64,000 bases of DNA. It comes from Candidatus Poseidoniaceae archaeon (GTDB lineage Archaea > Thermoplasmatota > Poseidoniia > Poseidoniales > Poseidoniaceae). Below the pieces are notes generated by a model. The model was not told where the DNA came from and searched no databases. It worked only from the letters and a program-made list of their open reading frames with translations. Both the position numbers and the translations under genes were made by a program. Numbering within the stretch: position 1 is the stretch's first letter; every line of letters starts with the position of its first letter. Of the stretch, positions 3,655-50,416 are shown one piece after another. The stretch is from the NCBI GenBank assembly GCA_045568435.1, contig JBJLBB010000001.1:100305-164304 (forward strand), in the 5' to 3' direction.

Positions 3655-3655
3655 A

Positions 3656-4696: not shown

Positions 4697-4741
4697 GTAT
4701 GTGTCGTTCAAAAGAAGGACTTTGAACTTAAGTATTGAAAA

Positions 4742-7094: not shown

Positions 7095-7098
7095 TATT

Positions 7099-7881: not shown

Positions 7882-7925
7882 TATTTACAACAGTAAGCCT
7901 TGAAACCCTCGGGCATGAGCGCAAA

Positions 7926-11470: not shown

Positions 11471-11512
11471 TTGAATCATAATCCTCAAAGACAATGCAGT
11501 ATAGCGTCACCT

Positions 11513-13543: not shown

Positions 13544-13547
13544 AATT

Positions 13548-15092
13548 ATTACTACAATAACTCTTGATGGTAACACGCTATCTTCATCTGAGATTTGGCG
13601 CGTGGCTACTGGTAATGCTGAAGTTGACATCTCCCAAAGTTCTTGGGATAGAATTATCAAATCACGCAAGGTAGTTGAAGATATTTTACAAAGTGGGGAA
13701 ATTGTTTATGGAATCAATACTGGTTTTGGTGCACTAGTAAACCAAACAATTTCCGACAAAGATTTACAACAATTACAAGTTAATCTAATTCGTTCACATG
13801 CCACTGGAATCGGTGAATTAATGTCGAAAGAGTCTGTTAGGGCTATGATGACTGCAAGAATTAATTCATTTGCTAAAGGTTACTCAGGAGTCCACCCTAA
13901 TGTAGTCCAACAATTACTCGACTTCATCAACTTAGACATTACGCCAGCTATACCGCGTATCGGTAGCCTCGGTGCCAGTGGTGATTTAGCACCTCTTTCG
14001 CATATGGCATTAGCATTGATAGGAGAGGGTGAAGTATTAATTGAAGGAAATAAAGTTTCTAAAACTAAAGAGGTTATAGTTGAAAAGGGACTTATACCGC
14101 TAGAATTGGGTGCAAAGGATGGTTTATCGCTAATCAATGGTACAAGTCAAATGTTGAGTTTACTAGTAGAGTCAGAACAAATTCTCTCACAATTACTACC
14201 ACTTGCTGACATCATAATGTGTGCTTCTCTAGAGGCATTCAAAGGAACAGCAGTTCCTGCAGATTCTAGAGTTCATGATGCAAGGCCTCACCCGGGGCAA
14301 AAATTAGTGGCATCTAGAATAAGACAAATCATGTCACAGTCAGAAATACTTGCTAGTCACGCAGATTGTGGTAAAGTGCAAGACCCTTACTCATTTAGGT
14401 GTGCACCACAAGTACATGGGGCAGTAAATGAAAGCCTAATGCAACTAAGGTCGACGTTGGAAATTGAAATCAACAGCACCACAGATAATCCATTAGTGTT
14501 TTTTGATAGTGAAGATGATGAGCAAAAGATTGTTTCTCAAGGTAATTTCCATGGAGAAATATTAGGATTAGTAGCAGATAAAATGTCACTTTCTATCTTT
14601 GAATTGGCTTCTATAAGTGAGAGAAGGATGGATCAATTGCTCGATAATAAGAAAAGTGGACTGCCGCCATTTTTAGCTTCTAACAGCGGTCTTGAATCAG
14701 GACTCATGATTGTACAATATGTCGCAGGTGCGTCCTTGTCTGAACTTCATGGCCATGCAGCACCCAGGACAGCATTCTCAACCAGTACTTCTGCTGGACA
14801 AGAAGACCATGTTAGCATGGGCGCAACTGCCTGTTGGAATTTATTACAAGCAACTCAAAGATTGTCTGAAGTACTTGCTTGCGAACTACTTATTGCTTGC
14901 CAAGCACTGGAATTCGAAAGTTTAAAACCATCACCATTCATCCAATCAATTGTTAAATTAGTGAGAGATATTTCACCAAAAATTGAATCTGATAGATCCA
15001 CTAGTAGTGATTTAATTGCAATTTCTAATTCTCTTAAAGAAGGCGGATGGCTATCTAGAATTGAAGCAGAGAATAGTAGACTTTCTAATTAG
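13548..15092 (+). CDS. hutH: Histidine ammonia-lyase, inferred ATT start
   Basis: VYGINTGFG, MIO-forming GASGDLAPL, QDPYSFRC.PQVHG, GNFHG, QEDHVSMG. The typical N-terminus TITLDGNTLS lies upstream of GTG 13602 with no canonical start codon in frame. Confidence 0.93.
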   Translation: MTTITLDGNTLSSSEIWRVATGNAEVDISQSSWDRIIKSRKVVEDILQSGEIVYGINTGFGALVNQTISDKDLQQLQVNLIRSHATGIGELMSKESVRAMMTARINSFAKGYSGVHPNVVQQLLDFINLDITPAIPRIGSLGASGDLAPLSHMALALIGEGEVLIEGNKVSKTKEVIVEKGLIPLELGAKDGLSLINGTSQMLSLLVESEQILSQLLPLADIIMCASLEAFKGTAVPADSRVHDARPHPGQKLVASRIRQIMSQSEILASHADCGKVQDPYSFRCAPQVHGAVNESLMQLRSTLEIEINSTTDNPLVFFDSEDDEQKIVSQGNFHGEILGLVADKMSLSIFELASISERRMDQLLDNKKSGLPPFLASNSGLESGLMIVQYVAGASLSELHGHAAPRTAFSTSTSAGQEDHVSMGATACWNLLQATQRLSEVLACELLIACQALEFESLKPSPFIQSIVKLVRDISPKIESDRSTSSDLIAISNSLKEGGWLSRIEAENSRLSN

Positions 15093-15960: not shown

Positions 15961-16060
15961 CGCACCTAATCACCCTAAACCCTTCTTATATTTACATTTC
16001 AACGAGGAAATGCCATGAATGATTATATTCATCAATGATTTGCCTTAGACGGGTGTGAAC

Positions 16061-18229
16061 ATGTCCGACGACAAATCCGATGAAATTCCAATGGCCGAAT
16101 GTGGCTCTTGTAGAGCTGTAATTCCACTAAATTCCGAAGAATGTCCAGAATGTGGAATTAGTTTTTCAGGAGTATCTGATGAATCACTAGGTGAGTGTGG
16201 CGCTTGTAAGGCTTTAGTACCTCTAGATTCAAAGAGCTGTCCAAAGTGTGGAGTTTATTTTGTGGCGGATGACGTAGTTGATGTCCTCAGGAAATGGTTT
16301 GTTGAAACTGGTATAGAAGTTGGCGCTTTATTTTCGAAGATGGATGCCGATAATGATGGCTCAATCGATGCAGAAGAGCTGAAAGATGGGCTATTGAAAC
16401 TTAATTTAGCAGACCTACCTCCTTCTCAAGTCGATAGATTAGTACAAGAATTTGATTCCGATAATGACGGTAAGATCAGTTTGGAAGAGTTGGTATTTAC
16501 TATCACTGGAGAAGAGATAGAATCTATTGAATCCGAAGCCGAAGAATCTACTCAGAAAGAATATTCTGAAAATGTTCTTGTAAGAGTCATGGAGAAGTAT
16601 TCTATTTCTGATAGAGATGCTTTCCTTCTGCATTCACAAGACTATGATTCCAACGATAATGGGTACTTGACTGAGGGCGAATTCAAAGCTGCTGCTGAAG
16701 CATATAGTGAGTCGTCAGAAGAGGAATCCTCCGAACAAGAGTCTGAAGAGCCTGTTACTGAAGAACCTACAGAGGATGTAATTGAAGATTCAAATGAAGT
16801 CAAAGATGAAGATGTTGAAGAAGAATCTACGGAAGAGGATACTACTGAAAAAGCAGAAGTTGAATCTGAAGATGAAAGCGTTGAAGAAGCAGTAGAGGAC
16901 CCTGGAGAAGTTACTGAACAATCACCAATGCACAGACTCGGAGTTGCTGCATCTCAAGGCGGAATGACTATTCGTGAAGTTTTCGAAGCAATGGACTTAG
17001 ACGATGATGGCCTTATAGATGGGCCTGAATTACAAAAGGGTATAGAACAACTTTCAGGGGATAAATTATCACCCACAGAGGTCTTTGAAATACTGAAATC
17101 TCTTGATGAAGATTCCGATGGAAGAGTAAATCCTATGGAATTAGTTAATGCACTAGAATCTCTTGATTTGGATATTAAATCTGATAAATCTGGTGGCATG
17201 AGAGATCCTGTCTCAATATTGATTGAAGCAATGGATGATGCAGGCACAAATCCCGGTAGAGTGTTCAGGCAACTGGATAAGAATGGTGACGGTAACATCA
17301 ATATTAACGAATTACGTTCTGAAGTAGAGTCTTTCATTGAAGAATCCCTGAGTGATGAAGAAATGGACCATCTATTCGAAAGATTGGATGATGATGGAGA
17401 CGGCTTCATCGACATGTATGAATTCATAGAAAATCTGGAAGAATATGAGGATTCTGAAGATGAAGAAACAAGTTTGTCTTCTAAGGTAGAATTCCCTAGT
17501 AAGATGCAATCGCGTATGATGTCGAAGAAATGGAATGATGTTTTCTGGCCATTGATACATGCAGGTTTGTTCATATTCATTGTAATGTGGATAGTTAATG
17601 GTTCATTGGCTCCTTTCGTTAGTGGGGAAGGCGGAAATATCGAGTTAGTTACTGAAACTGGATTGTATGATGATGGTGAAAAGTTATACTTTGAAGGCGA
17701 CATATATCCCTGTGTTGACTCAGTTCAAACCGATGGCTGTAAGAATTCTCTAACTCCTTTAGCAGGTGAATCCTCATCTATGCCAGCAGGATTCTATTGG
17801 GATGGTATATTGTTCATAATACTAGGCAGTTTAGGTTTAGTAAGTTCATTATTTACTCACTTGTCGATAGTTCCAGGCTGGAGAGCCAGAGCCAAAGCAA
17901 TTAGAGATTCCGAAAAAGAGCGTAAAGAAGTTGATGAGGAATCAGAGGATTCCGATGACGATTCACAAGATGAAGAAGAAACCGATGACGAAGAATTGGA
18001 TTCTGATGATGCAGACGATGAATCAGAAGTGGAAGAAATAATTGATGATGAAGAAGTTGAAGATGATGAAATTGATATCGGCTCACATATCGGATTAGTG
18101 CTAGACGACGAAGAAATCTTTGGAGTAATAGTAGAGTTCGATGATGACGAAAATCTAGTGACCATTGAAGAAGACGGAACTGGTGATTTAGTCACTGGTT
18201 ATCAAGATGACATGTTTTTAGAAGATTAA
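16061..18229 (+). CDS. Membrane protein with double Zn ribbon, 7 EF-hand-like loops and acidic linkers
   Basis: CGSC..CPECG..CGAC..CPKCG; loops DADNDGSIDAEE, DSDNDGKISLEE, DSNDNGYLTEGE, DLDDDGLIDGPE, DEDSDGRVNPME, DKNGDGNININE, DDDGDGFIDMYE; two hydrophobic helices. Confidence 0.8.
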   Translation: MSDDKSDEIPMAECGSCRAVIPLNSEECPECGISFSGVSDESLGECGACKALVPLDSKSCPKCGVYFVADDVVDVLRKWFVETGIEVGALFSKMDADNDGSIDAEELKDGLLKLNLADLPPSQVDRLVQEFDSDNDGKISLEELVFTITGEEIESIESEAEESTQKEYSENVLVRVMEKYSISDRDAFLLHSQDYDSNDNGYLTEGEFKAAAEAYSESSEEESSEQESEEPVTEEPTEDVIEDSNEVKDEDVEEESTEEDTTEKAEVESEDESVEEAVEDPGEVTEQSPMHRLGVAASQGGMTIREVFEAMDLDDDGLIDGPELQKGIEQLSGDKLSPTEVFEILKSLDEDSDGRVNPMELVNALESLDLDIKSDKSGGMRDPVSILIEAMDDAGTNPGRVFRQLDKNGDGNININELRSEVESFIEESLSDEEMDHLFERLDDDGDGFIDMYEFIENLEEYEDSEDEETSLSSKVEFPSKMQSRMMSKKWNDVFWPLIHAGLFIFIVMWIVNGSLAPFVSGEGGNIELVTETGLYDDGEKLYFEGDIYPCVDSVQTDGCKNSLTPLAGESSSMPAGFYWDGILFIILGSLGLVSSLFTHLSIVPGWRARAKAIRDSEKERKEVDEESEDSDDDSQDEEETDDEELDSDDADDESEVEEIIDDEEVEDDEIDIGSHIGLVLDDEEIFGVIVEFDDDENLVTIEEDGTGDLVTGYQDDMFLED

Positions 18230-20937: not shown

Positions 20938-21954
20938 ATGAGCGGCGATGGATGGACCCTGGGTATTGAGTCGACAGCCCATACATTGTCATTCGGATTG
21001 GTAAATAATGAAGGGATTCCTTTTCCATCAATTTCCGATACAGTAAAGCCCGATAAAGGAGGCATACATCCTCGGCAGGCTGCTGACCATCACAAGGAAG
21101 TAGCACCTGAATTATTTAGAAGAATTCTTTCGGAAAATAATTTACAGCCAACCGACATTTCCAATATTGCATTTTCTCAAGGACCAGGGCTGGGGCCCTG
21201 TCTACGCATTGGGGCATCGATTGCTAGAGGATTATCCAATCGACTAGATGCTCCATTGATCGGAGTTAATCATTGCGTAGCACATATTGAGATTGGAAGG
21301 CAACAATGTGGTTGCGATGACCCGGTTTTACTATATGTTTCTGGAGGAAATACACAAGTTATTGCACGACTCGAAGGACGATATCGTGTCTTAGGCGAAA
21401 CCCTTGACATTGGTATTGGCAATATGCTAGACAAATTTGCACGAGCACAAGGAATTCCATTCCCTGGTGGGCCTGTAATAGAAAAATTGGCAGCTGAATG
21501 GCTTAAAGATAATCCTAATCATGACATGGAAGGTTTAGAATTACCCTATGCTGTTAGGGGAATGGATTTAGCATTCTCCGGAGTCTTAACTGCGGCATTG
21601 AAATTAGTGGAAAATGGGCACTCTTTAGGTTCTGTTTGTTGGTCATTACAAGAGCATGTGTTTTCTGCATGTGTCGAAGTTGCAGAGAGGGCATTATCTC
21701 ACACTGGTAAAACTGAACTTCTTCTTGGAGGGGGTGTTGCTTGTAATAATCGATTACGTTCTATGTGTAGCATTATGTCGCAAGAAAGAGATTCTGAATC
21801 TTTCGCCCCACCTCGAATGTATTGCATCGATAATGGTACAATGATTGCCAGACTTGGTTGGTTAGAGCAACAAGTTGGTAGGATCACCCTGCTAGAGAAG
21901 AGTGCTATTGACCAGTATCTAAGGACAGACCAAACACCAATCACTTGGGCATAA
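20938..21954 (+). CDS. kae1: tRNA N6-threonylcarbamoyltransferase Kae1
   Basis: LGIESTAH, GGIHP..AA.HH, GPGLGPCL, VNHCVAHIE, SGGNTQ, DNGTMIA. Confidence 0.95.
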   Translation: MSGDGWTLGIESTAHTLSFGLVNNEGIPFPSISDTVKPDKGGIHPRQAADHHKEVAPELFRRILSENNLQPTDISNIAFSQGPGLGPCLRIGASIARGLSNRLDAPLIGVNHCVAHIEIGRQQCGCDDPVLLYVSGGNTQVIARLEGRYRVLGETLDIGIGNMLDKFARAQGIPFPGGPVIEKLAAEWLKDNPNHDMEGLELPYAVRGMDLAFSGVLTAALKLVENGHSLGSVCWSLQEHVFSACVEVAERALSHTGKTELLLGGGVACNNRLRSMCSIMSQERDSESFAPPRMYCIDNGTMIARLGWLEQQVGRITLLEKSAIDQYLRTDQTPITWA

Positions 21955-22041
21955 GGCTGATTTAGAAGCCAATGGTTTTAAGAGGTCGTCTTAGGGCTAA
22001 TATTAGGGGAATGCTGTATCGCAGGTAGAAGGAAGAAAGAT

Positions 22042-22884
22042 TTGCCTCTGAACCCTTTTGCGCGCAATGCTGCTGCTGAGAGAAATAAACGCCAAGCTGA
22101 CAGAGCTAATATGCGCAAAAGAGAGGAGTTAGCCACAGCGCAAGCACCTGCAAAACCTCAATCCAAGAATACCAGTAATATTCTAGCAGAAATGCAAAAA
22201 AAAGCCGCAAAGCAATTGCAAAATGACAATATTGTTACTACCGAGGCTGAGCAAAAAGCCGTCCAATTACCAGAGCCAACAATAATCGTCAAGAAAAAAA
22301 TTGATGTTGAAGAAAAAGTTAAGTCTGATATACGCGAAGAACTAAATCGAAAAACAGCAGAGGCCAATAAAAAATATCAAGAAATTGCGTCTAATGTGAC
22401 TGAAGAAACACCTCAAGTTGAATCAATTGCCGTAGAACTAGAAACCTCAGTAGAAGAAATCACTAATGCTGAAGTTGAACTTATAGAAGATAAGCCCACT
22501 TCTGATATCGAAGAAGTTTCCAAGGGTGCAAAAAATGTTTTCAAAACAGTTGAACAGACCAAGAAGCCATCTGTCACAGGTGATCGCCGCAAGCGTAAGC
22601 GTAGAATGGACAAGAAAGGTGGCGGGCGTCAAAAAATGGAAAAGAAACTGAATCGACAAAAGATTTTGGCGTTCAAATATTTTGCCAGAGATTTACTCGA
22701 TGACCCGAATATTCCTGAAGAACACCGATCTAACGTTTTAGGTCAAATTATTGCAAAGGGAGAAAGGACAAGCATAGAATCAGCAATCGAATTCATCAAT
22801 CAAAAACGCGATGAATTAATTCTTACTGAAGAAGTGGCAAAATCACTTATCAGTGAGATAAAAAGTATGACGACAAGAAGGTGA
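22042..22884 (+). CDS. Hypothetical protein, low-complexity N-terminal half and basic helical C-terminal domain
   Basis: 280-codon ORF with TTG start, between kae1 and slyD. Confidence 0.65.
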   Translation: MPLNPFARNAAAERNKRQADRANMRKREELATAQAPAKPQSKNTSNILAEMQKKAAKQLQNDNIVTTEAEQKAVQLPEPTIIVKKKIDVEEKVKSDIREELNRKTAEANKKYQEIASNVTEETPQVESIAVELETSVEEITNAEVELIEDKPTSDIEEVSKGAKNVFKTVEQTKKPSVTGDRRKRKRRMDKKGGGRQKMEKKLNRQKILAFKYFARDLLDDPNIPEEHRSNVLGQIIAKGERTSIESAIEFINQKRDELILTEEVAKSLISEIKSMTTRR

Positions 22885-22888
22885 AAAT

Positions 22889-23392
22889 ATGGTAGAAAAA
22901 ATTAGCAAAGATATGGTAGCAAGCGTACATTATACAGGAACTTTACCCGATAGCGGTGAAATATTTGATTCAAGCGAGGGTCGGGATCCCTTATCATTCT
23001 TAGTTGGTCATGGTCAAATGATACCAGGATTTGAAGAAGAATTAATGGGTGCATCAACTGGTGAAAAAAGAGAATTCACTCTATCACCAGATAAGGCCTA
23101 TGGAGATAGGGAGGAGGAAGCAACTATGAAGATTCCAAGAGCACAATTCGCACAACTCGAACAGTCTGCAAAATTAGAAGTGGGGACACAACTAGTGGCA
23201 CAAATGCCTCATGGACCTGCTCCTTTCACTATAATTGAACTTGATGAAGAATCAGTTACTGCAGATTTTAATCACGCACTAGCTGGTAAAACATTAACAT
23301 TTAATGTCGAAGTTGTAGGCGTAAGATCTGCAACTGATGAGGAAATTCAACACGGCCATGCACATGGAATTAGTGGGCATGCTGAGCATTAA
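22889..23392 (+). CDS. slyD: FKBP-type peptidyl-prolyl isomerase with His-rich tail
   Basis: GHGQMIPGFEE, DFNHALAGKTLTF, C-terminal HGHAHG...HAEH. Confidence 0.92.
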   Translation: MVEKISKDMVASVHYTGTLPDSGEIFDSSEGRDPLSFLVGHGQMIPGFEEELMGASTGEKREFTLSPDKAYGDREEEATMKIPRAQFAQLEQSAKLEVGTQLVAQMPHGPAPFTIIELDEESVTADFNHALAGKTLTFNVEVVGVRSATDEEIQHGHAHGISGHAEH

Positions 23393-23467
23393 CATGCTAA
23401 AACCTGCAATTATGACGGTTGCTGTTGATACAGTAGGCTTGATGAATCGTCAGCACTTGGAACGGCT

Positions 23468-25069
23468 ATGGCTGAACAGCGTCGTGAAGTCTGGGAGACA
23501 CTTTCTGGCATTGATTTACCCATGAATCCAGATCAGGATTCTATGATTCAATCTGGCTCTATTGCGTCAAAAACCCCTAACGCTGGCAGTCCACCCTATA
23601 CTCGGGGGATTTATTCGACAATGTATCGGTCTAGACTTTGGACGATGCGTCAATATGCAGGTTTTTCAAGTGCTAAGGAAACAAATGAACGATTTAAATT
23701 ATTGCTTGGGCGCGGTCAAAAAGGACTTTCAGTCGCTTTTGACTTACCGACTCAATTAGGCCTTGATGCAGACGACGAACTCTCTCTAGGAGAGGTTGGA
23801 AAGGTAGGTGTATCTATTTCTACACTAGACGATATGAGAGAATTATTTGATGGCATTCCATTGGGTAAAGTTAGTACTTCAATGACGATAAACGCTCCTG
23901 CAATGGTGCTTCTAGCGATGTACGCAATAGTTGCTGAAGAACAGGGAGTAAGTATCGATCAAATTCGAGGAACTATTCAAAATGATATTCTCAAAGAATA
24001 TATCGCAAGAGGTACATATGTATTCCCACCAAAACCAAGTATGCGACTTATTACAGATATTTTCTCATATTGTTCTCAAAACATACCAAACTGGAATACA
24101 ATATCTATTTCGGGATATCATATTAGAGAAGCAGGCTGTACTGCTGTTCAAGAAGTAGCATTTACTCTTGCCAATGCTCTAGCTTACGTTGACGCTGCAT
24201 TAGAAGCAGGATTGGACATTGATAGTTTTGCACCAAGACTTTCCTTCTTTTTCAATTGTCATAATGACTTTTTTGAAGAAGCATCGAAGTTTAGAGCAGC
24301 ACGTAAGTTATGGTATGATTTGATGAATGAGAGATATAGCCCAAAACATCCTAAATCAAGTATGCTTAGATTCCATACTCAAGTAGCAGGAGTGAGTCTT
24401 ACTGCCCAACAGCCACTGAACAATATTTCAAGAGTGACAATACAAGCCTTAGCAGCAATTTGTGGTGGAACTCAAAGTCTTCACACGAATTCATATGATG
24501 AAGCAATAGGACTTCCCACTGAAGAGAGTGCCACTATTGCTCTTAGAACTCAACAAATAATTGCTGAAGAAAGTGGTGCTGCTGATGTAGCAGACCCACT
24601 AGGCGGTTCATACCATGTCGAAACACTAACTCAGAAAATCTATGACTTATCGATGGAGCAAATCTCCACTATTGAAAAAATGGGTGGTGCAATGGCGGCG
24701 ATTGAAGAAGGTTGGCAACAAAGAGAGATTCATAATTCAGCTTTCAAGCATTTGAAAGAAGTGGAGAGTGGAGTTAGGAAAATAGTTGGAGTGAACCATG
24801 GTGTGATGGAGGAAAACCTTCAGCATAAACCAATGTCAATCAATGCTGAAGTAGAGAAGAACCAATGTGATAAATTATCTAATTGGAGGGCGAATAGAAG
24901 TCAATCTGAAGTTGATATGGCTTTAGAGGTCATTACAAAAGCTTGTCAGACAGGCGATAACTTATTCCCACTTGTAATGAATGCGCTCAGAGTTGATAGC
25001 ACCCTGGGTGAAATTATGAATTCAATGAAAAAAGAATTTGGTACATGGATGGCCCCTAGTGGATTTTAG
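23468..25069 (+). CDS. mcmA1: Methylmalonyl-CoA mutase, substrate-binding (N-terminal) subunit
   Basis: PYTRGIY..MYR.RLWTMRQYAGF, GLSVAFDLPTQ, GTIQNDILKEY, QSLHTNSYDEA; no B12-binding domain. Confidence 0.93.
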   Translation: MAEQRREVWETLSGIDLPMNPDQDSMIQSGSIASKTPNAGSPPYTRGIYSTMYRSRLWTMRQYAGFSSAKETNERFKLLLGRGQKGLSVAFDLPTQLGLDADDELSLGEVGKVGVSISTLDDMRELFDGIPLGKVSTSMTINAPAMVLLAMYAIVAEEQGVSIDQIRGTIQNDILKEYIARGTYVFPPKPSMRLITDIFSYCSQNIPNWNTISISGYHIREAGCTAVQEVAFTLANALAYVDAALEAGLDIDSFAPRLSFFFNCHNDFFEEASKFRAARKLWYDLMNERYSPKHPKSSMLRFHTQVAGVSLTAQQPLNNISRVTIQALAAICGGTQSLHTNSYDEAIGLPTEESATIALRTQQIIAEESGAADVADPLGGSYHVETLTQKIYDLSMEQISTIEKMGGAMAAIEEGWQQREIHNSAFKHLKEVESGVRKIVGVNHGVMEENLQHKPMSINAEVEKNQCDKLSNWRANRSQSEVDMALEVITKACQTGDNLFPLVMNALRVDSTLGEIMNSMKKEFGTWMAPSGF

Positions 25070-27907: not shown

Positions 27908-29404
27908 AAATGCCTTGATGGCATCTCTGACAATATCGATTATCATATCGATCTCACCTGATGTTATTCTAAAGTGAGGTGTGAACCTCAAGGCATTAAT
28001 TCCCCCATGTATTACTCCAAGACCACGTCTTCTGCACCAAGGCTCAACAGCATCGAAACCTACTACAGGGAAACGTGATGGGTCTAATTCAGCACTAACT
28101 AGCAACCCAGTTCCTTGGACCTTTGTGATAGTGCCTGGTAATTCCTCGGCTAATTCCTTAAGTTTAGCAACAAACTCAACACCCCTGTCTCTTATGTTAT
28201 TACGCAATTCTGGAGTCATTTGCTCCAACACCGAGACTGCAATCTCTAATGCTCTAGGGTTTGTAGTCATTGTATTTCCATAAATCCCAACAACATACAT
28301 TGATGCTGCTCTATCATTCATTCCTAATACGGACAAAGGATATTGACCAGCATTGATTGCTTTGGACCAAGTTTCAAGGTCAGGAGCTTCAGCATCTTGA
28401 AAACCTTCGTAATCGATAACTGATAAACATCCCTGGCCCCTAATACCTGCTTGAATCGAATCAACTAAAAACATCGAATCATGTTCAAGGGTTAGTTTAC
28501 GGGCTTCATCATAGAACTCTCTAGAGATGCATTGACCAGGATTCCCTTCACCTTGTACTGGTTCTACTGCCAATAATTCGATAAAGAATTTTTCATCGAT
28601 AGAGCGTTGAAATACTTCACGAAGAGATTCAATGTCATTGGCAGGTACTAAGATTAAATTATCGCGGTTTTGGAAACTGGCAAGATTCTTATCATAACCA
28701 GACATACATGAGTGGGATATTTGAGCAGGTCTGTCGGTACGACCGTGGAAACTCCTAACAATAGATACCATCTTGATGGGATATCCATCATATTTAGCAC
28801 CTTTAGAAGTCATTCGATTAGCGTTAACATCAGCTATTCTTAGAGCCACAGTAACAGACTCAGAACCACTATTCATGCAAATAAACTTAGAGAAAGGGCA
28901 ACTGCCTCTAGTATGGCCAAGTTCTGCTTTGAGTGCCTCAGATAATCTCTTCTGACTAAATGAAGGTGTCATTACATTAGCCATGACCCAGTTTTTAGAC
29001 ATAGTTGAAATCACTGAATCTGGTCCATGGCCAGCACCCAACATTCCATATCCTCCATTATCATGGACCACTGCTCCATGCGAAGTCACTATCCAAGGTC
29101 CTTTGGCTGAAAGCGCAACATATGGATTAACAGTTGCTGGGGCATAAAAATTTACAATATCACTTTGAAGTTCATCAACTAATGATTTTTCTTCCATCAT
29201 CATCAGATCACTGCCCATAGAAGTTGCTAATTCCTTATGAGTATCATAACCTTCATTTATAGCAGTCACAAGAGTTTCATCGACTTTACAGAATTGCTTG
29301 ATTATATCGTCAGAAAGTCCAGCGGTATCCATATCACCACTATTTTCCCTTATGGAGTACAACTTTGACATTATCCCGTCAGCGTCAATCATTACTGTCA
29401 TCAA
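27902..29404 (-). CDS. lat: Class III PLP aminotransferase, L-lysine 6-aminotransferase type
   Basis: GPWIV...GAVVHDNGGYGMLG.GH, NSGSE, SFHGRTDRP, EPVQGEG, DSIQAG, TWSKA, YGNTMTTNPRA; colinear, from memory, with Flavobacterium lutescens Lat. Confidence 0.75.
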   Translation of the reverse strand: MMTVMIDADGIMSKLYSIRENSGDMDTAGLSDDIIKQFCKVDETLVTAINEGYDTHKELATSMGSDLMMMEEKSLVDELQSDIVNFYAPATVNPYVALSAKGPWIVTSHGAVVHDNGGYGMLGAGHGPDSVISTMSKNWVMANVMTPSFSQKRLSEALKAELGHTRGSCPFSKFICMNSGSESVTVALRIADVNANRMTSKGAKYDGYPIKMVSIVRSFHGRTDRPAQISHSCMSGYDKNLASFQNRDNLILVPANDIESLREVFQRSIDEKFFIELLAVEPVQGEGNPGQCISREFYDEARKLTLEHDSMFLVDSIQAGIRGQGCLSVIDYEGFQDAEAPDLETWSKAINAGQYPLSVLGMNDRAASMYVVGIYGNTMTTNPRALEIAVSVLEQMTPELRNNIRDRGVEFVAKLKELAEELPGTITKVQGTGLLVSAELDPSRFPVVGFDAVEPWCRRRGLGVIHGGINALRFTPHFRITSGEIDMIIDIVRDAIKAFS

Positions 29405-29477
29405 CCATTCTCCATTGGCGGAGACTATTCAACATTCGCTTTTTGTCATCGTGAATTAATTAAATACTCGAATGAAA

Positions 29478-29516
29478 TAATACTCTAGTATTACTATAGT
29501 AATATTAATTAATACT
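29478..29516. promoter_or_regulatory. Palindrome array, candidate RHH operator
   Basis: TAATACT-CT-AGTATTA (29478-29493), perfect TATTACTATAGTAATA (29489-29504), TATTAATTAATA (29503-29514), directly upstream of the RHH gene. Confidence 0.5.
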
Positions 29517-29533
29517 TAGTGGCAGGATTAGTC

Positions 29534-29713
29534 ATGCCTAAAGTTTCACTTGACATGCCTGCTGAGATTATCGGCGATCTAAGATTACATGTTGGCGATG
29601 AAAGGAAATTCGTTAGCCTAGCCGATGCAATAAGGACTGCCTGTAGAAAATTACTCGACCAATTAGATGACATTGATTCGAGGCATGGAAGAAATAATGG
29701 AGGAGATTTATAA
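29534..29713 (+). CDS. Ribbon-helix-helix (CopG/MetJ-like) regulator
   Basis: MPKVSLDMP beta-ribbon, then helices IIGDLRLHV and SLADAIRTACRKLL; its stop overlaps the folE ATG (TAATG). Confidence 0.75.
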   Translation: MPKVSLDMPAEIIGDLRLHVGDERKFVSLADAIRTACRKLLDQLDDIDSRHGRNNGGDL

Positions 29714-30282
29714 TGACTACAAGAGATGAAGCAATGGAGGCTGTTAGCACTTTACTTTCATATTTAGAAAAGGATTACAAACGTGAAGGACTACTATCAA
29801 CTCCCAAAAGAGTTGTAGATTCTTGGGATGAAATTTTTTCGGGATATAATGAAAACTCAGGTGAGATATTAGATGCGACATTCAATGGAGAAGGGTACGA
29901 TGGTATCGTTTTACTTAGAGATATAGAATTTCATTCGACATGTGAACATCACCTGCAACCATTCAATGGTAGGGCTCATGTTGCATACATACCAGTTGAC
30001 AGAATAGTTGGGATAAGTAAACTATCGAGAATTGTTGATCTACATGCTAAGAGATTGCAAAACCAAGAGCGAATAACAAAAGGAATCGCTGATGACTTAG
30101 AGTCTCACTTATCACCACTTGGTGCTGCAGTAATTATTGAGGCATCACATGGCTGCATGCGATGTAGAGGTGTGAAGAAACAAAATGCTGTAATGACTAC
30201 ATCAGCAATGCGTGGAGTCTTTTTCGATAAGCAAGAGGCAAGACAGGAATTGATGCAGTTGATACAATCAAAACCACTCTGA
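29713..30282 (+). CDS. folE: GTP cyclohydrolase I
   Basis: STCEHHLQPF.G, GISKLSRIV, QNQERIT, HGCMRCRGV. Confidence 0.95.
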   Translation: MTTRDEAMEAVSTLLSYLEKDYKREGLLSTPKRVVDSWDEIFSGYNENSGEILDATFNGEGYDGIVLLRDIEFHSTCEHHLQPFNGRAHVAYIPVDRIVGISKLSRIVDLHAKRLQNQERITKGIADDLESHLSPLGAAVIIEASHGCMRCRGVKKQNAVMTTSAMRGVFFDKQEARQELMQLIQSKPL

Positions 30283-30305
30283 ACAATTAACGTAGAGGGA
30301 TTATT

Positions 30306-30902
30306 ATTACGACCTATCCAATTGTCGAAATTTTTCACTCTGTTCAAGGAGAAGCATATCACATGGGCAAGCCCCATGTTTTTGTACGATTTGGAAATTG
30401 TAATCTAAGATGCGAATGGTGTGACACAAACTTTCTAGAATATGATGAGATGGAGTTGCAAGACATTGTCAAACAGGTCCTTTCATATGGTTGCGAACGA
30501 GTGATATTTACTGGTGGAGAACCATGTCTACAAGATTTAGAAACTATCGGGAATGAATTGAAGAAATATGATCTTAACCTATCTGTTGAAACGAATGGAA
30601 CTATTGATGTCCCCGAGGTTATTGATTGGATATGTGTTTCACCTAAAGATCAATTATATCCAAACACTAAGATATCTCAAACCACAGGTAATGAATTGAA
30701 GGTAGTTTACTGTGGTCAAGACTTATCGATGTATGATAATTTGAAAGGTGGTTTTACACACCTTTACTTACAACCTTGCTATATTGAAAGCATGTCTGTA
30801 GAAGAGAATGGCAAGAACTTCGCACTTGTTGAAGAATTAGTAAAAAATAATCCTGGGTGGAGGTTATCTCTCCAGACTCATAAATGGATGGGGGTAGACT
30901 AA
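30306..30902 (+). CDS. queE: 7-carboxy-7-deazaguanine synthase (radical SAM), inferred ATT start
   Basis: CNLRCEWC, FTGGEP, ETNGT, CVSPK, RLSLQTHK. The conserved IVEIFHSVQGE lies upstream of ATG 30363, with an in-frame stop at 30288 and no ATG/GTG/TTG between. Confidence 0.92.
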   Translation: MTTYPIVEIFHSVQGEAYHMGKPHVFVRFGNCNLRCEWCDTNFLEYDEMELQDIVKQVLSYGCERVIFTGGEPCLQDLETIGNELKKYDLNLSVETNGTIDVPEVIDWICVSPKDQLYPNTKISQTTGNELKVVYCGQDLSMYDNLKGGFTHLYLQPCYIESMSVEENGKNFALVEELVKNNPGWRLSLQTHKWMGVD

Positions 30903-32053
30903 TGAAAATCGCGGTAATGGCTCTCAGCGGAGGAATGGATTCTACATCATTGCTTCTTAGACTCCTAAATGAGGGGTACCAAGTTTACTGCATATCATAT
31001 GAATATGGTCAGAAGCACCGGGTTGAAGTAGATAGGTCGGCACTAAATATTGAGTATTTAAAATCAAAGAATTTTGACGTAGTGCATGAAATTGTAGATT
31101 TACAAGGTGCTATGAGTATATTCAATAGTTCATTGCTTAATGATGAATCTGATGTCCCTGAGGGGCATTATGAAGAGGAACAGATGAAATCAACAGTAGT
31201 TCCAAATCGGAATGCTATTTTTTCTTCGATATTGTATGGATATGCACTCTCAATAGCAGTAAAAAATAATGCAAATGTCAAAATTGCCTTGGGGGTTCAT
31301 TCAGGTGACCATGCAATTTATCCAGATTGTAGACCTCAATTCTATAATGCACTAGAACACGCTTTCCAAATTGGAAATTGGGATAGTGAAAAGGTATCCT
31401 TCGAATTGCCATATATCGATGGTGACAAAAAATCTATTCTTTTAGATGCACTAAAATCATGCGAAGCATTAGAAATTGATTTTGATACAATCTTTTCCAA
31501 TACTAATACCTCATATAATCCAGACTCCGAAGGGAGGAGTTCAGGTAAAAGCGGAGCTGATATTGAGCGTATATTAGCATTCAAAGCAATAGGTCGAGTA
31601 GATCCAGTCGAATATATCGATTCATGGGAAGTAGTACTATCAAACGCGGTGGAAGTTGAAATGCGACATAAAGACGAATATTATCGGGAAAAATTGACTG
31701 AATTGCAATATATTGTGACAAGGCAAGGTGGTACTGAAAGAGCATTTACTGGAATCTATGACAAAGAAAAACGTGATGGTGTTTATCGTTGTATTTGTTG
31801 CGACCATATTTTATTCACATCATCGAATAAATATGATTCAGGTTGTGGCTGGCCAGCATTCCATAGTGAGAGTGAAGATGCTGGAATATTACGGATACCA
31901 GACGATAGTATGGGCATGTTAAGAATTGAAGTTAGATGTTCCAAATGTGATGCACATTTAGGACATGTTTTCGAAGATGGTCCTCGGTCATTTGGTGGCG
32001 AAAGATACTGCATAAATTCAGCATCATTAAATTTCGAGGAGGAATCAATATGA
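30902..32053 (+). CDS. queC: QueC (7-cyano-7-deazaguanine synthase) fused to MsrB (methionine-R-sulfoxide reductase)
   Basis: QueC part: SGGMDS, VPNRN, YPDCRPQF. MsrB part from about M at 31661: GTERAFTG, CICC, GCGWPAF, CSKCDAHLGHVFEDGP, RYCINSAS. No stop codon between them. Confidence 0.92.
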   Translation: MKIAVMALSGGMDSTSLLLRLLNEGYQVYCISYEYGQKHRVEVDRSALNIEYLKSKNFDVVHEIVDLQGAMSIFNSSLLNDESDVPEGHYEEEQMKSTVVPNRNAIFSSILYGYALSIAVKNNANVKIALGVHSGDHAIYPDCRPQFYNALEHAFQIGNWDSEKVSFELPYIDGDKKSILLDALKSCEALEIDFDTIFSNTNTSYNPDSEGRSSGKSGADIERILAFKAIGRVDPVEYIDSWEVVLSNAVEVEMRHKDEYYREKLTELQYIVTRQGGTERAFTGIYDKEKRDGVYRCICCDHILFTSSNKYDSGCGWPAFHSESEDAGILRIPDDSMGMLRIEVRCSKCDAHLGHVFEDGPRSFGGERYCINSASLNFEEESI

Positions 32054-32499
32054 CAACATACATTAGAAGATACGTAGAAACTGACACCGGACACAGAGTC
32101 CCCAATCACAAGAGTAAATGTAAGCATATGCATGGCCATCGATACAGATTTGAAGCCGAAATCGAAGGTGATGTTGTGACTCAGAAAGGTGTTTCTGAGG
32201 AGGGTATGCTAATGGATTTTTCAGATATCAGCGAGATTCTGACAATACATATCCATGATGTAGTCGACCATGCATTTGTGGTCTATCAAGGAGATGAATT
32301 GGCCTTGAGGGCTTTGGAACTAATGGGTGATGGGCATCGAACTGTAATTGTGGATTTCATTCCAACTGCAGAAAATTTAGCTAAATGGGCATTTGAACAG
32401 ATCGAGCCTCTGATTTCTACAGCATATGGAAATAGGTTGAAACTCGTTGCCATGCATGTTCGTGAGACTCCGAAGAGTATTGCTACTTGGCGACCATAA
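32050..32499 (+). CDS. queD: 6-carboxy-5,6,7,8-tetrahydropterin synthase
   Basis: GHR....SKCKHMHGHRY, LMDFS, DH, PTAENLA, RETPKS. Confidence 0.92.
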   Translation: MTTYIRRYVETDTGHRVPNHKSKCKHMHGHRYRFEAEIEGDVVTQKGVSEEGMLMDFSDISEILTIHIHDVVDHAFVVYQGDELALRALELMGDGHRTVIVDFIPTAENLAKWAFEQIEPLISTAYGNRLKLVAMHVRETPKSIATWRP

Positions 32500-33339
32500 T
32501 TATTCTTCTGAATCCGGTTGAATCTTTCTGCGCCTACGACTTATCCATTCTTCATTTCCATCCACGTATTGAAGGGCTGTAGTAGCGTCAAGAATTCCGC
32601 CAATTAATCTTGTTGCCTCGTCTTCAGTTGGCATTGAAAGCATAATTGAACGAACCATGGAATTTTTAAAACTAGATTTTCGCTCTTCATTTCCAGGCAA
32701 TGCCTTAGAAAGTTCATCAATACCTTTGACCAATATATCTCGTAAACTCCCATTTATTGAACGTTCTATTGGCACAATATCGGGTAAACTTTGGTCTTCA
32801 CCTTGATTATTGAGGACTCTAAGTTTGTGTAATTCATAGACAAATGCATTCACTGCATGTGAGAGATTAGCGATAGGATAGCCTTCCCATGTTGGTAAAG
32901 TTGTTAAAAAGTCACACATATCCAACTCATTTGTGGACATACCTTTTCCTTCTTCACCAAAAACCAAGGCTACTTTTCCATTAAATTTGAATATACGCTG
33001 AGAAAACTCCCAAGGATATGTGAAATGGCGGAATGAGGTTTTTGAACCTACTTCTCTCTTACCCGAGGTTCCAACTACAAGTGAGCAATCGCTGATTGAT
33101 TCTTCAAGACTATTGTATACTTCACATTGTTGTAAAATACTTCCTGCATGCTTTGCTCTATTTCTTGCTTCAACATCGAGATGGTCGCATTTTGGATTTA
33201 CTAAACGGAGGTTTTCAAATCCATAGTTGAGCATACTACGGCAAATAGCTCCTAAGTTTCCTGGGTGAGAAGTTCCAATCAAAATGATAACCAATTGATA
33301 ATTACTTTTCGGTAATGGCAGATTTTGTCGATCGCCCAT
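32500..33339 (-). CDS. trmJ: SPOUT RNA methyltransferase, TrmJ/TrmH family
   Basis: HPGNLGAICRSMLNYGF..LRLVNP, ALVFGEEGKGM..EL, NLSHAV. Confidence 0.85.
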   Translation of the reverse strand: MGDRQNLPLPKSNYQLVIILIGTSHPGNLGAICRSMLNYGFENLRLVNPKCDHLDVEARNRAKHAGSILQQCEVYNSLEESISDCSLVVGTSGKREVGSKTSFRHFTYPWEFSQRIFKFNGKVALVFGEEGKGMSTNELDMCDFLTTLPTWEGYPIANLSHAVNAFVYELHKLRVLNNQGEDQSLPDIVPIERSINGSLRDILVKGIDELSKALPGNEERKSSFKNSMVRSIMLSMPTEDEATRLIGGILDATTALQYVDGNEEWISRRRRKIQPDSEE

Positions 33340-33558
33340 TCAATCACCATTTGAACCAATATGCTCAGCGATCCATCTTGGGTCACAAGGCTGATAGATG
33401 AAAAATAGATATCCGCCACTTTCTCTATCGTCCATTACAAGTGAACGCTTTCTAACAGAATACTTATTCTTAAGAAAGTCAATTAATTGTTCTAATTCAT
33501 CCTTACTTTCAGAATGAACGCTGACAGGATGTCTGTCCCAATCTATGCGCACTGACAC
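33340..33558 (-). CDS. Small hypothetical protein in the ribosomal protein operon
   Basis: 72 aa, GTG start after GAGGG; its stop abuts the trmJ ATG. Confidence 0.65.
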   Translation of the reverse strand: MSVRIDWDRHPVSVHSESKDELEQLIDFLKNKYSVRKRSLVMDDRESGGYLFFIYQPCDPRWIAEHIGSNGD

Positions 33559-47352: not shown

Positions 47353-47521
47353 AACTAATCCTCGTTATAATGGCCGTATAGTCGGCCGTCCATAAGTAAC
47401 ATGGTTGGCTAGATATATTTTTGATAGGTCAAAAATTTGTTTTCAAGCGTCTTATCTAAAAACCCCCTCTCATTGGCATCAAATGAGCCCCAAGGTTTTG
47501 CGGCTTGTGAGGTGTAAATCT

Positions 47522-48685
47522 ATGCGAATTGGCGTCCCTAAAGAACCAGATAATGAAGCGAGAGTTGCTATTGTTCCTGGAAGTATGAAGAAATTGATTA
47601 AGGCTGGATTTGAGGTTCTAGTAGAAAAGGGCGCAGGGGTTAGTGCTAACTACTCAGATTCTCAATATGAAGACCTTGGTGCTAAACTAGTTTCTAGAAA
47701 AGAAGCCCTTGAATGTGAAAATGTTATTTGCATTAATTTCCCTGGACTTGATTCAATAAAGAGTGGCACCAATCTAACTTGTGTATCCGATCCTTTTAGA
47801 AACCCTGAAAATGTCAAATCTTGTCTTGAGGCAAAAGTAACATTGATGTCGATGGACATGATTCCTAGGAGACTATCTAGGGCTCAATCTATGGACGTTA
47901 ATTCGAGTCAAGATAATCTAGCTGGATACAAGGCGGTACTATTAGGAGCAGCAAATGTTCCTCGAGGTATTCCTATGATGACAACATCTGCTGGAACAGT
48001 TAGGCCTGCAAAGGTTGTCGTCATGGGCAGCGGAGTTGCTGGACTTCAAGCAATTGCAACCGCTAAGAGATTAGGCGCTGTTGTATATGCATCTGACGTT
48101 AGGAAATCAGCAGCTGAACAAATAGAATCTGTTGGTGGAAGATTCATTGAAGTTGATGGTATGGATGACTTTGAAGACGAATCGGGATATGCAAAACCGT
48201 TGACTCCAGAATTTATTCAAAAGGTAAACGATACAGTTTGTGGTGTTGCAATGGATGCTGACATCATAGTTACTACTGCTAGAATATTTGGCCGACCAGC
48301 ACCAATAACAGTTCCTACTAGTGCTGTTAATCAATTCAAATCAGGTGCTGTAGTGGTAGATATGAATGCTGATGTTGGAGGTAACTGCGAAAGTACTGTT
48401 GCTGGTGAAATAATTACTACTGAAAATGGAGTTATCATTGTTGGAACTTCAAATTTACCAGGCACATTAGCAAACACTGCAAGTATGCTTTATTCAAATA
48501 ATCTTACGACATTTATTACATCACTTGTCGATGAAGGAAAAGTTGTAATCTCACAAGATGATGATATATTGGTTGGAGCACCAGAAGGTTCTGATTTCTA
48601 TGTTGGTGGAATGGGCGGTGTTTTGATCTGCGAAAATGGAGAAATTCACCATAAGCAAACAAGACTAGCAGGGGTGATTGAATGA
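47522..48685 (+). CDS. pntA: NAD(P) transhydrogenase alpha1 (domain I)
   Basis: MRIGVPKE, RAQSMDV.SSQ.NLAGYKAV, MMTTSAGTVRPAKV, GVAGLQAIATAKRLGA, GGNCE. Confidence 0.93.
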   Translation: MRIGVPKEPDNEARVAIVPGSMKKLIKAGFEVLVEKGAGVSANYSDSQYEDLGAKLVSRKEALECENVICINFPGLDSIKSGTNLTCVSDPFRNPENVKSCLEAKVTLMSMDMIPRRLSRAQSMDVNSSQDNLAGYKAVLLGAANVPRGIPMMTTSAGTVRPAKVVVMGSGVAGLQAIATAKRLGAVVYASDVRKSAAEQIESVGGRFIEVDGMDDFEDESGYAKPLTPEFIQKVNDTVCGVAMDADIIVTTARIFGRPAPITVPTSAVNQFKSGAVVVDMNADVGGNCESTVAGEIITTENGVIIVGTSNLPGTLANTASMLYSNNLTTFITSLVDEGKVVISQDDDILVGAPEGSDFYVGGMGGVLICENGEIHHKQTRLAGVIE

Positions 48686-48993
48686 CGCCGGAATTATTGA
48701 TTGGAAGTTTAACATTATTTGTATTATCTATTTTCTTAGGATTTGAACTGATTACTAAAGTTCCAGCAACTTTACACACGCCCTTGATGAGTGGTGCAAA
48801 CGCGATTTCTGGAATAAGTATTGTAGGTGCATTGATCGGTTCAAATGTGGCCTATAATGCCGGTGATACTGTTTTCTCAGGAATTCTAGCATTTGTTGCA
48901 GTAGTTTTAGCCATGATAAACGTGGTTGGTGGATTTATGGTGACAAATCGTATGTTGAACATGATTGCTGGAAGAAAGAGAGGAGGTGCTTGA
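48682..48993 (+). CDS. NAD(P) transhydrogenase alpha2 (membrane part)
   Basis: LHTPLMSGANAISGI, NVVGGF.VTNRML. Confidence 0.92.
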   Translation: MTPELLIGSLTLFVLSIFLGFELITKVPATLHTPLMSGANAISGISIVGALIGSNVAYNAGDTVFSGILAFVAVVLAMINVVGGFMVTNRMLNMIAGRKRGGA

Positions 48994-48994
48994 A

Positions 48995-50416
48995 ATGGAG
49001 TTTGGAGATTGGACTTCAATGGGATATCTGCTATCTGCGGCACTATTCATTTTTGGATTAAAGAAACTTGGTCATCCAAGAACCGCACCTCGCGGTAATC
49101 AATTGGGTGCACTTGGTATGCTTGTTGCTGTTCTAACCACAGTACTCGATATGCATCTTGAGGGTGGAGCACAATGGACATTGGTTATTGCTGGATTGAT
49201 TATAGGTTCACTTATTGGTTACTGGATGGCTGTTAAAGTTGAAATGACTGGAATGCCAGAATTAGTTGCTTTATTCAATGGCTTTGGTGGAGCAGCATCT
49301 GCATTAGTAGCACTTTCAGAAGTTTGGACTTATCTTGAAGGTGCTGAAGTCCCAACAGGACTTAAGTTGACTGTAACAATGGTCGCTGCTGGATTATCTG
49401 CAGTTGTGGGCTGGATGACTTTAACCGGTTCAATCCTAGCAATGTACAAACTCAAAGGTGGAGTCAGCGTATTTGGCAAGTGGATAAAAACTCCAACATG
49501 GGGACCAAGTTGGCTTAATGGTGTCAAAATTTTGCTTCTAATATCCGCTGCTGTATTGATCTACCTAAGCATTGATGACCCAACCAATAAACAATACATA
49601 TACGGTTTGATTGGAATATCTGCTTTGCTAGGAATCATTCTTGTTTTACCAATTGGCGGCGCAGATATGCCTGTAGTAGTTTCTCTACTAAATTCTCTTT
49701 CAGGAATTGCAGCAGCATTTACCGGATTTATAATCAATAACTCTGTATTAATTGTAGCAGGTTCTTTAGTAGGTGCATCAGGATTAATTCTAACATTCAT
49801 CATGTGCAAAGCAATGAATAGAACACTTCTAGATGTTCTTTTCAAATCATTTGGTGGTAGTGGAGAAAAGCAATCTCTTACAAGAACTAAAATTGGTTCA
49901 GATTCCGATGAAGTCGCAATGATGTTGGACGGTGCACAGAAAGTAATAATTGTCCCCGGATATGGAATGGCTGTATCACAATGCCAACATCAAGTTAAGG
50001 AATTTGCTGACCTAATGAAGGAAAAATTTGGAACCGAAGTAAATTATGCTATTCACCCTGTTGCAGGAAGAATGCCTGGTCACATGAATGTACTTTTAGC
50101 GGAAGCAAATGTGCCATATGAGCAACTGATTGAAATGGATGAAATCAATCCTGAATTCCCTGATTGTGATGTTGCCTTAGTTATTGGTGCCAACGATACG
50201 ACAAATCCTGCAGCAAGGTCTGGAGAGGGACCATTGGCTGGTATGCCGATTATCGATGCTGATATGGCTAGAACTGTAGTAATTGTCAAGCGTTCACTAT
50301 CAGTTGGATATGCTGGAGTTGACAACGATCTATTTTACATGGATAAAACCATGATGCTATTTGGCGATGGAAAGAAAATGATTACAGAACTGAATAACTC
50401 TATTAAAGAGATTTAG
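48995..50416 (+). CDS. pntB: NAD(P) transhydrogenase beta subunit
   Basis: MTGMPELVALFNGFGG, PIGGADMPVV, CKAMNR, PGYGMAV, HPVAGRMPGHMNVLLAEA, IGAND. Confidence 0.95.
   Translation: MEFGDWTSMGYLLSAALFIFGLKKLGHPRTAPRGNQLGALGMLVAVLTTVLDMHLEGGAQWTLVIAGLIIGSLIGYWMAVKVEMTGMPELVALFNGFGGAASALVALSEVWTYLEGAEVPTGLKLTVTMVAAGLSAVVGWMTLTGSILAMYKLKGGVSVFGKWIKTPTWGPSWLNGVKILLLISAAVLIYLSIDDPTNKQYIYGLIGISALLGIILVLPIGGADMPVVVSLLNSLSGIAAAFTGFIINNSVLIVAGSLVGASGLILTFIMCKAMNRTLLDVLFKSFGGSGEKQSLTRTKIGSDSDEVAMMLDGAQKVIIVPGYGMAVSQCQHQVKEFADLMKEKFGTEVNYAIHPVAGRMPGHMNVLLAEANVPYEQLIEMDEINPEFPDCDVALVIGANDTTNPAARSGEGPLAGMPIIDADMARTVVIVKRSLSVGYAGVDNDLFYMDKTMMLFGDGKKMITELNNSIKEI

Follow-up and report, generated by a model that had tools for sequence, protein, structure and literature searches.

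The conversion of 7-carboxy-7-deazaguanine (CDG) to 7-cyano-7-deazaguanine (preQ0) is the last step of the folE-queD-queE-queC route, which supplies the archaeosine precursor for tRNA. One archaeal fusion involving the QueC family is Gat-QueC of Crenarchaeota, which is said to have been described by Phillips and colleagues in 2012 and reportedly consists of a glutamine amidotransferase fused to a QueC-like domain. A 2026 survey of the QueC family gives YxQxHxxE, VPxRN and YPDC as catalytic motifs, along with an essential Tyr (Y189 in Escherichia coli), and describes the C(x)8CxxCxxC zinc motif as the hallmark of QueC, zinc being treated as required (PMC13329287). Among methionine sulfoxide reductases (Msr), known fusions are MsrA-MsrB, in Streptococcus pneumoniae, Helicobacter pylori and Treponema denticola, and thioredoxin (Trx)-MsrA-MsrB, in PilB (PMC2713860, PMC8000184). 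Here we describe queC::msrB, a gene in which a QueC-type domain is joined to MsrB, found in a stretch of 64,000 nucleotides (the window) from a Candidatus Poseidoniaceae archaeon (assembly GCA_045568435.1, contig JBJLBB010000001.1, positions 100,305 to 164,304). It is a true in-frame gene fusion, common to most Marine Group II (MGII; Poseidoniales) archaea. No QueC-MsrB/SelR fusion is described in the full-text literature that we searched or in the 2026 survey (PMC13329287), in agreement with an earlier note on this DNA, whose author knew of no described fusion of these families.

The N-terminal domain of the fusion shares with canonical QueC (E. coli P0AG67; Bacillus subtilis 3BL5; 'Cluster 1' of PMC13329287) the fold, the SGGxDS, YxQxHxxE, VPxRN and YPDC motifs, the Tyr, and the partner genes queD, queE and folE. 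It differs from canonical QueC in having Ser, Ser, Ser and Asp at the zinc positions, an insertion of about 20 residues around PEGHYEEEQMK, a score below the TIGR00364 cut-off and a C-terminal MsrB. The closest likeness in cultured phages is the QueC of Flavobacterium phage vB_FspM_immuto (QQO91946.1), a member of the same subfamily with 42% identity, which reads PEGHYAEDNMKATVVPNRN and also has no Cys at the zinc positions; unlike the archaeal gene it stands alone, has no MsrB, and presumably serves deazaguanine modification of viral DNA or tRNA. The C-terminal domain resembles stand-alone zinc-containing MsrB (E. coli 6SYM; the PilB domain of Neisseria meningitidis, 3HCG) in its two CxxC pairs, GCGWP and RYCINS, with an identity of 56-57% to E. 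coli MsrB and a root-mean-square deviation (rmsd) of 1.2 Å, but it lacks a start of its own, and its N-terminal helix is predicted to run on from the final helix of QueC. As in the MsrAB and PilB fusions (structures 3E0M, 7E43, 5FA9), MsrB is here a module of a multi-domain chain with a short connector. In those proteins, however, the partners share a substrate class or recycle each other, which gives the fusion an obvious logic, whereas the partner here is an enzyme of nucleobase biosynthesis, and neither MsrA nor Trx occurs in the fusion protein or the window. Gat-QueC is likewise an archaeal fusion of a QueC-family domain in deazaguanine/archaeosine metabolism; its partner, however, is N-terminal and supplies nitrogen for the same pathway, while MsrB is C-terminal and belongs to an unrelated process.

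Both domains are encoded by one open reading frame (ORF), 30884..32053 on the forward strand, and neither the ORF listing nor the translation has a stop between the halves. The start at ATG 30902 is supported by its overlap with the queE stop and by the N-terminus of the orthologues, MK.AVMALSGG. The gene thus spans 30902..32053 (+), 383 amino acids (aa) and a stop that overlaps the queD start (ATGA), and carries two Pfam domains, so that the in-frame fusion proposed in the earlier note was confirmed. The segment 31400-31900, which includes the junction, shows zero substitutions or gaps against contigs from four independent public runs of different studies dated 2014-2024, and the 2.1-kb fusion region recurs nearly word for word in at least 20 public marine metagenome runs from at least 7 studies. 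At the read level, three 2026 runs sampled at about 3% yielded one pair flanking 31646-31756, which does not cover that stretch itself. The best 120 matches in a collection of 5.8 billion proteins all carry both Pfam domains, at 67-100% identity and, except for one 323-aa fragment, with lengths of 376-399 aa. Compared with the nearest relative in which synonymous divergence is unsaturated (L028), the ratio of nonsynonymous to synonymous substitution rates (dN/dS) was 0.05 for QueC and 0.07 for MsrB, and dN was 0 in the connector. The low values point to strong purifying selection on both halves and indicate that both are maintained as working proteins. Two short metatranscriptome contigs, one spanning the domain boundary (31555-31704) and the other the end of msrB and the start of queD (31887-32085), are compatible with co-transcription of queC::msrB and queD; both are weak evidence, as DNA carry-over is possible, and neither marks a 5' end.

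The distribution was examined in a scan with one genome per GTDB species, in which 185 relatives were found and the best 80 kept, with loci limited to about 13 kb. All 80 belong to Poseidoniales or Marine Group III (MGIII), except one contig labelled Phycisphaerae. The latter, NZFX01000056.1 of 'Phycisphaerae bacterium MED703' (L045), holds a complete MGII-type operon with the fused gene at 69% QueC identity, and is almost certainly a mis-binned Poseidoniales contig. The fusion is present in 63 of the 80 loci within an otherwise constant operon, single-cell genomes (L011, L032, L034, L044) included, so that it is far from unique to this assembly, which the earlier note had named as a possibility. 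The fused loci take two forms: one of 379-385 aa, which is that of the window, and one of 360-365 aa, in which 14 connector residues are deleted and the chain runs ALKAQLRHYVMKENGTE from the last QueC helix into MsrB. In two species (L056, L065) the genes are split, queC (255 aa) being followed by TAA, one codon, and the ATG of msrB in the same frame; the L056 form has four extra residues compared with the window, so its stop is not in exact register with R255. Finally, in nine MGIIb and six MGIII species queD comes immediately after queC (255-259 aa), and there is no msrB up to a distance of about 6 kb. Relatives with the two genes unlinked, which the earlier note would have taken as a sign against the fusion, do therefore exist, as a minority. 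To look beyond these groups, we searched 1.84 billion proteins, each representing a 50%-identity cluster, for a second fusion in either domain order. A single 50%-identity cluster (P0011) contains the full fusion, and all matches above about 238 bits outside the MGII cluster and its fragments are QueC-only. Since a second QueC/MsrB fusion would have to score above that value, the architecture is confined to Poseidoniales.

The MsrB domain occupies 31670..32050 (+), aa ~257-383, with SelR/MsrB (PF01641) at aa 265-379 (E=7.8e-47). Both MsrB profiles are passed, PF01641 with 158.5 bits against 24.9 and TIGR00357 with 167.2 bits against 113.05. Residue roles were assigned from published MsrB enzymology. 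The zinc site is formed by two CxxC pairs, C297/C300 (31790-31801) and C346/C349 (31937-31948); the recycling Cys is C315 in G314CGWP318 (31841-31855), which is followed by A-F; the H352/H355 pair is present; and the catalytic Cys is C370 in R368-Y-C370-I-N-S (32003-32020). None of the catalytic and zinc residues varies among 76 fused orthologues. Over 122 aa, this part shares 57% identity with E. coli MsrB (6SYM; E=4e-41), and its AlphaFold2 (AF2) model superimposes on that structure with a TM-score (TMt) of 0.87 at the rmsd given above. The complete MsrB recognized in the earlier note, with both CxxC pairs, GCGWPAF and RYCINS, was thus found in full, and the domain is apparently a catalytically complete, ordinary zinc-containing MsrB of the two-cysteine type.

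The QueC-type domain occupies 30902..31669 (+), aa 1 to ~256, with PF06508 at aa 4-230 (E=1.3e-40; 139.6 bits against a threshold of 22). It contains the PP-loop S9-GGMDS14 (30926-30943), Y35GQKHRVE42 (YxQxHxxE), V100PNRN104, Y140PDC143 and Y205, all invariant in the 76 fused orthologues, and its predicted structure matches B. subtilis QueC (3BL5) with a TMt of 0.78 in Foldseek. The four Cys positions of C(x)8CxxCxxC are, by contrast, taken by S204, S214, S217 and D220 (31511..31561, +), as seen in the alignment with E. coli QueC. A residue-for-residue comparison sets NTNTCYNPDKEGRSCGKCGSCQER of the Cys-containing homologue P0122 against NTNTSYNPDSEGRSSGKSGADIER of the window. The substitution is the same in 80 of 80 MGII/MGIII loci, unfused QueCs included. 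Cys is absent at these positions in L002-L081, P0121, P0123-P0125, P0127, P0129 and L082:3992-4873, a set that takes in unfused MGII/MGIII QueCs, several metagenomic clusters and a Flavobacterium phage QueC. Where the motif can be read in the nearest 50%-identity clusters, it is zinc-free (S-x-S/T-D) in 13 and has four Cys in 14. What the earlier note called a 'full QueC' keeps the other catalytic motifs, but all four hallmark zinc-binding Cys are gone, a loss on which it had not remarked. As the defining zinc motif is not matched, we regard the domain as a zinc-free variant rather than a canonical member, most likely working like QueC. The divergent C-terminal part is probably the reason for the TIGR00364 score of 131.2 bits, below the equivalog cut-off of 150.3, and for the fact that NCBI names the protein 'MsrB' only. 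We also considered that the zinc site of MsrB might compensate structurally for the one lost from QueC; this was rejected, since unfused zinc-free QueCs occur in MGIII, MGIIb and phage.

Several close metagenomic homologues of QueC carry additions of their own. P0122 (658 aa) and P0123 (734 aa) have an intein-like insertion of about 400 aa (C...HN boundaries) right after GIHSGDH and just before YPDC, P0134 (456 aa) has an N-terminal Cys/His-rich HNH-like region, and P0127 and P0130 (358/367 aa) end in unassigned tails of 90-120 aa. These are probably viral or mobile-element copies.

At the junction (31625..31726, +; aa 242-275) the AF2 model has helices at aa 242-264 and 267-275, with predicted local distance difference test values of about 88-94, the C-terminal helix of QueC continuing into the first helix of MsrB. 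In unfused QueCs the chain stops at positions that correspond to aa 254-260 (in EMRT, HKEKI or EQEM before the stop), and stand-alone and split MsrBs begin just before L..LQY.VT...GTE. The fusion point thus coincides with the natural C-terminus of QueC and the natural N-terminus of MsrB, with no linker added, as expected from the loss of a stop codon between neighboring genes.

What is the consequence of placing these two enzymes on one chain? From an architecture that is conserved and limited to Poseidoniales, and from intact motifs under purifying selection, we infer a bifunctional protein whose two enzymes work independently, a reading that we hold to be, on balance, the probable one. The N-terminal domain would be a zinc-free QueC-type ATP-dependent synthase converting CDG to preQ0, and the C-terminal domain would reduce protein methionine-R-sulfoxide and be recycled by thioredoxin. 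The fusion would bring no new reaction; it would ensure that MsrB is always transcribed and translated together with a biosynthetic operon that is needed constitutively. Because QueC is dimeric in bacteria, it would probably also dimerize MsrB. As to the route, msrB would have come to lie between queC and queD in a Poseidoniales operon whose stops and starts overlap; loss of the stop codon that separated queC from msrB would then have joined the two. A fusion of this kind is hard to undo once made, because a stop, a ribosome-binding site and a start are needed together.

The independence of the two enzymes is suggested above all by the relatives. The six MGIII and nine MGIIb species have a QueC of the same subfamily that functions in this operon with no MsrB, and these msrB-less operons, together with the re-split genes and the 14-residue difference between linkers, argue against an obligatory QueC-MsrB partnership. 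In a helical connector, a 14-residue deletion would shift MsrB by about 2 nm and rotate it relative to QueC; a precise inter-domain geometry would not tolerate such a change, which argues against a geometry of that kind. A neighbor-joining (NJ) tree of concatenated FolE, QueE and QueC (631 columns) recovered the msrB-less MGIIb clade as monophyletic in 60 of 60 bootstraps and the carriers in 1 of 60. In this tree the msrB-less clade is nested among the short-linker carriers and the split form lies inside the long-linker forms, indicating that the pathway could survive the loss or detachment of the MsrB part. A single early fusion on the MGII stem, with one later loss and one re-split, is the more likely history; these are simple distance trees built from operon proteins, and we claim no firm direction. 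A tree of MsrB domains with stand-alone representatives gave no clear signal on a single origin.

Certain observations weigh against this reading of the protein and its history. In the NJ tree of QueC alone, with MGIII as the root, all carriers group together and the msrB-less MGIIb clade is their sister, a placement that the three-protein tree rejects (carriers monophyletic in 1 of 60). The predicted template modelling score (pTM) of 0.78 and the confident, continuous junction helix hint at a fixed orientation of the domains, which is compatible with a coupled function. Across family-level divergence (59-100% identity) the fusion persists, with one apparent re-split only. The presence of msrB in a preQ0 operon is puzzling, and both enzyme activities are read from sequence. 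Finally, a QueC domain without its zinc site may not carry the reaction through to its end.

The strongest of the alternatives to two independent activities is a functional coupling, in which MsrB would reduce conserved Met residues of QueC (M12, M95) or of QueE/QueD, or the supply of preQ0 would follow the thioredoxin/redox state in oxic, sunlit water. M12 sits in the SGGMDS ATP loop and M95 in a poorly ordered loop before VPNRN, and both are invariant in the 76 fused orthologues. With a long-lived fusion, constraint on both parts, a junction predicted to be a rigid helix (at the pTM given above) and a zinc-free QueC that can be read as hardened against oxidation, such a coupling is conceivable. 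However, M12, M95 and the zinc-free motif are found equally in the unfused QueCs of MGIII and MGIIb, and so are older than the fusion or unconnected with it. Some operons have the genes split and others lack msrB, and the connector differs by 14 residues between the fused forms. The sensitivity of QueE to oxygen lies in its Fe-S cluster, which MsrB cannot repair. A motif scan in any frame of the 64-kb window detected no MsrA (GCFW), thioredoxin (WCxPC) or second MsrB motif, and Pfam detected no PMSR or Trx domain in the fusion protein. We therefore consider coupling unlikely. The earlier note had suggested that MsrB may protect the QueE/QueD/QueC complex or tie tRNA modification to redox state. 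We found no support for either proposal: MGIII and one MGIIb clade use QueC with no MsrB attached, the genes are split in two species, and the linker varies by 14 residues.

The most far-reaching form of the idea is a redox module. In it, a QueC free of the oxidation-prone Cys4-zinc site would owe its continued activity in sunlit oxic water to the attached MsrB, which would re-reduce the invariant active-site residues M12, in the ATP loop, and M95, in the lid loop. The supply of archaeosine precursor would then follow the redox state of thioredoxin, and the stability of tRNA with it. We give this picture little credence. In a weaker form, the zinc-free QueC alone may be a new version of the enzyme that works without metal, in a family whose zinc site currently counts as a hallmark and as required.

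That absence of zinc ligands also raises the question of whether the QueC-like domain still makes preQ0. It might stop at the amide intermediate (ADG), perform another ATP-dependent ligation, or serve as a scaffold or dimerization module for MsrB. All four ligands of what PMC13329287 regards as a hallmark motif binding a required metal are replaced, the TIGR00364 score is below its cut-off, and PDB sequence matches of the QueC part stop at aa 151-176. Set against this, SGGxDS, YxQxHxxE, VPxRN, YPDC and the essential Tyr, which stands beside the first Cys position, are kept and invariant; the folE-queE-queC-queD operon is complete, with no other QueC candidate in the loci; and the QueC part evolves under a dN/dS of 0.05. 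Zinc-free and Cys-containing members are moreover close relatives within one subfamily, as the 13 and 14 clusters show. A domain that has lost preQ0 synthesis is thus improbable, and a working, zinc-free QueC is the reading with which we continue.

The earlier note also raised a weak internal start that could give free MsrB. In a wider form of this idea, free MsrB would be the main product or an additional one, through that start or by cleavage, and at the protein level the fusion would be only apparent. The sequence elements to which the note pointed do exist: an ATG at 31661-31663 (M254) within the junction is preceded by GGTGG 8 nt upstream, and other genes of the operon use sequences of the Shine-Dalgarno (SD) type. 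They are not conserved, however. M254 is restricted to the window and its closest relatives, L002 and L028, the other long-linker forms having I, R, E, L and other residues at this position, and the short-linker forms have no Met before the MsrB core. GGTGG is also weaker than the GGAGGAG and GAGGAGG of folE and queD, and the little RNA data available show no pile-up of molecule ends. Free MsrB as the main or additional product is thus very improbable. As for an artefact, be it a chimeric contig or a stop that vanished by an error of sequencing or assembly, we found nothing that speaks for it, and the identical sequence in four independent assemblies and at least 20 runs, the same two-domain architecture in hundreds of database clusters, its occurrence in 63 species genomes, some of them from single cells, and purifying selection running across the junction make it practically inconceivable.

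The fusion is thus a new, lineage-specific domain architecture made from two well-known enzymes, probably without a new mechanism. It has consequences for annotation. The fused proteins are named 'MsrB' only by NCBI (under Candidatus Poseidoniaceae, Thalassarchaeaceae or Poseidoniales archaeon) and '7-cyano-7-deazaguanine synthase' only by JGI, so that pathway reconstructions relying on one name would take MGII to lack either preQ0/archaeosine synthesis or methionine-sulfoxide repair. Poseidoniales, which are uncultured, rank among the most abundant archaea of the surface ocean; conserved oddities of their genomes are therefore rare handles on their physiology. The case also calls for caution in guilt-by-association arguments: the fusion is conserved, yet relatives show loss, re-splitting and variable linkers, which suggests that it probably reflects operon compaction and not a shared pathway. 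The zinc-free QueC, which is absent from the earlier note, is a more unusual point than the fusion itself and a more testable biochemical lead. Its subfamily constitutes a natural experiment on the role of a zinc site that the 2026 survey lists as defining and required (PMC13329287).

The fusion gene is the fourth of five genes in a compact, co-directional cluster with the order small ORF-folE-queE-queC::msrB-queD. Three of the four gene junctions are overlaps (TAATG, TAATG, ATGA), and SD-like sequences precede folE, queE, queC and queD. The first gene is a small conserved ORF at 29519..29713 (+), 64 aa from a GTG or, more probably, 59 aa from ATG 29534, whose stop overlaps the folE start. It was found by tblastn directly upstream of folE in 78 of the 80 related loci, at 65-97% identity, and has no match in Pfam or the PDB. 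Judged by eye, its strand-helix-helix pattern looks like that of ribbon-helix-helix proteins, which makes it a possible regulator of the preQ0 operon. AT-rich palindromes, including TAATACT-CT-AGTATTA, lie upstream of it at about 29478-29512. GTP cyclohydrolase I, which performs the first step towards preQ0, is encoded by folE at 29713..30282 (+; PF01227, 5.4e-67; FolE NF006825, 235 bits, above cut-off), with an SD sequence GGAGGAG 7 nt upstream.

The radical-SAM CDG synthase gene queE (30363..30902, +; Radical_SAM, 1.8e-11) overlaps the queC start with its stop (TAATG). Its product is unusually short (179 aa), beginning about 17 residues into the QueE profiles. It remains far below every NCBIfam QueE cut-off, the best match being TIGR04508 with 122 bits against 240, and the gene is retained at this short length in all 80 related loci. 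On the other side of the fusion, queD (32050..32499, +), for 6-carboxytetrahydropterin synthase, matches PTPS (6e-26) and scores 81 bits with QueD TIGR03367 (cut-off 89); it has an SD sequence GAGGAGG 7 nt upstream. In a number of fused lineages (L004, L030, L040, L043 and L044, at ~7160-7560 in each; L035-L038; L046) the gene after the fusion is only 28-30% identical to QueD of the window or gives no QueD match, which suggests that queD was replaced there by a divergent PTPS-family paralogue or another gene. An Rfam scan of 29000-33500 detected no riboswitch or RNA family, the sole match being a chance miRNA (E=0.8), and a scan for bacterial-type promoters and terminators, which is ill-suited to an archaeon, showed no enrichment over shuffles. 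Convergent genes downstream encode a SpoU-type methyltransferase, identified by Pfam, and ribosomal proteins L31e/L39e, recognized by eye from the translations.

The window as a whole has a G+C content of 38.6%. Elsewhere in it (732-15092, 20938-25069, 47405-50416) are encoded a MetRS with a tRNA-binding domain, a molybdopterin oxidoreductase, urocanase, histidine ammonia-lyase, Kae1/TsaD, methylmalonyl-CoA mutase and the PntA/PntB transhydrogenase. Urocanase and histidine ammonia-lyase stand for histidine degradation, and this content fits a heterotrophic Poseidoniales genome. At 16055-18229 (+) lies the gene for a 724-aa protein with several EF-hand pairs (E=1.7e-33) and an N-terminal double-zinc-ribbon match just below threshold (26 bits against a cut-off of 27), a calcium-binding architecture that is unusual for an archaeon.

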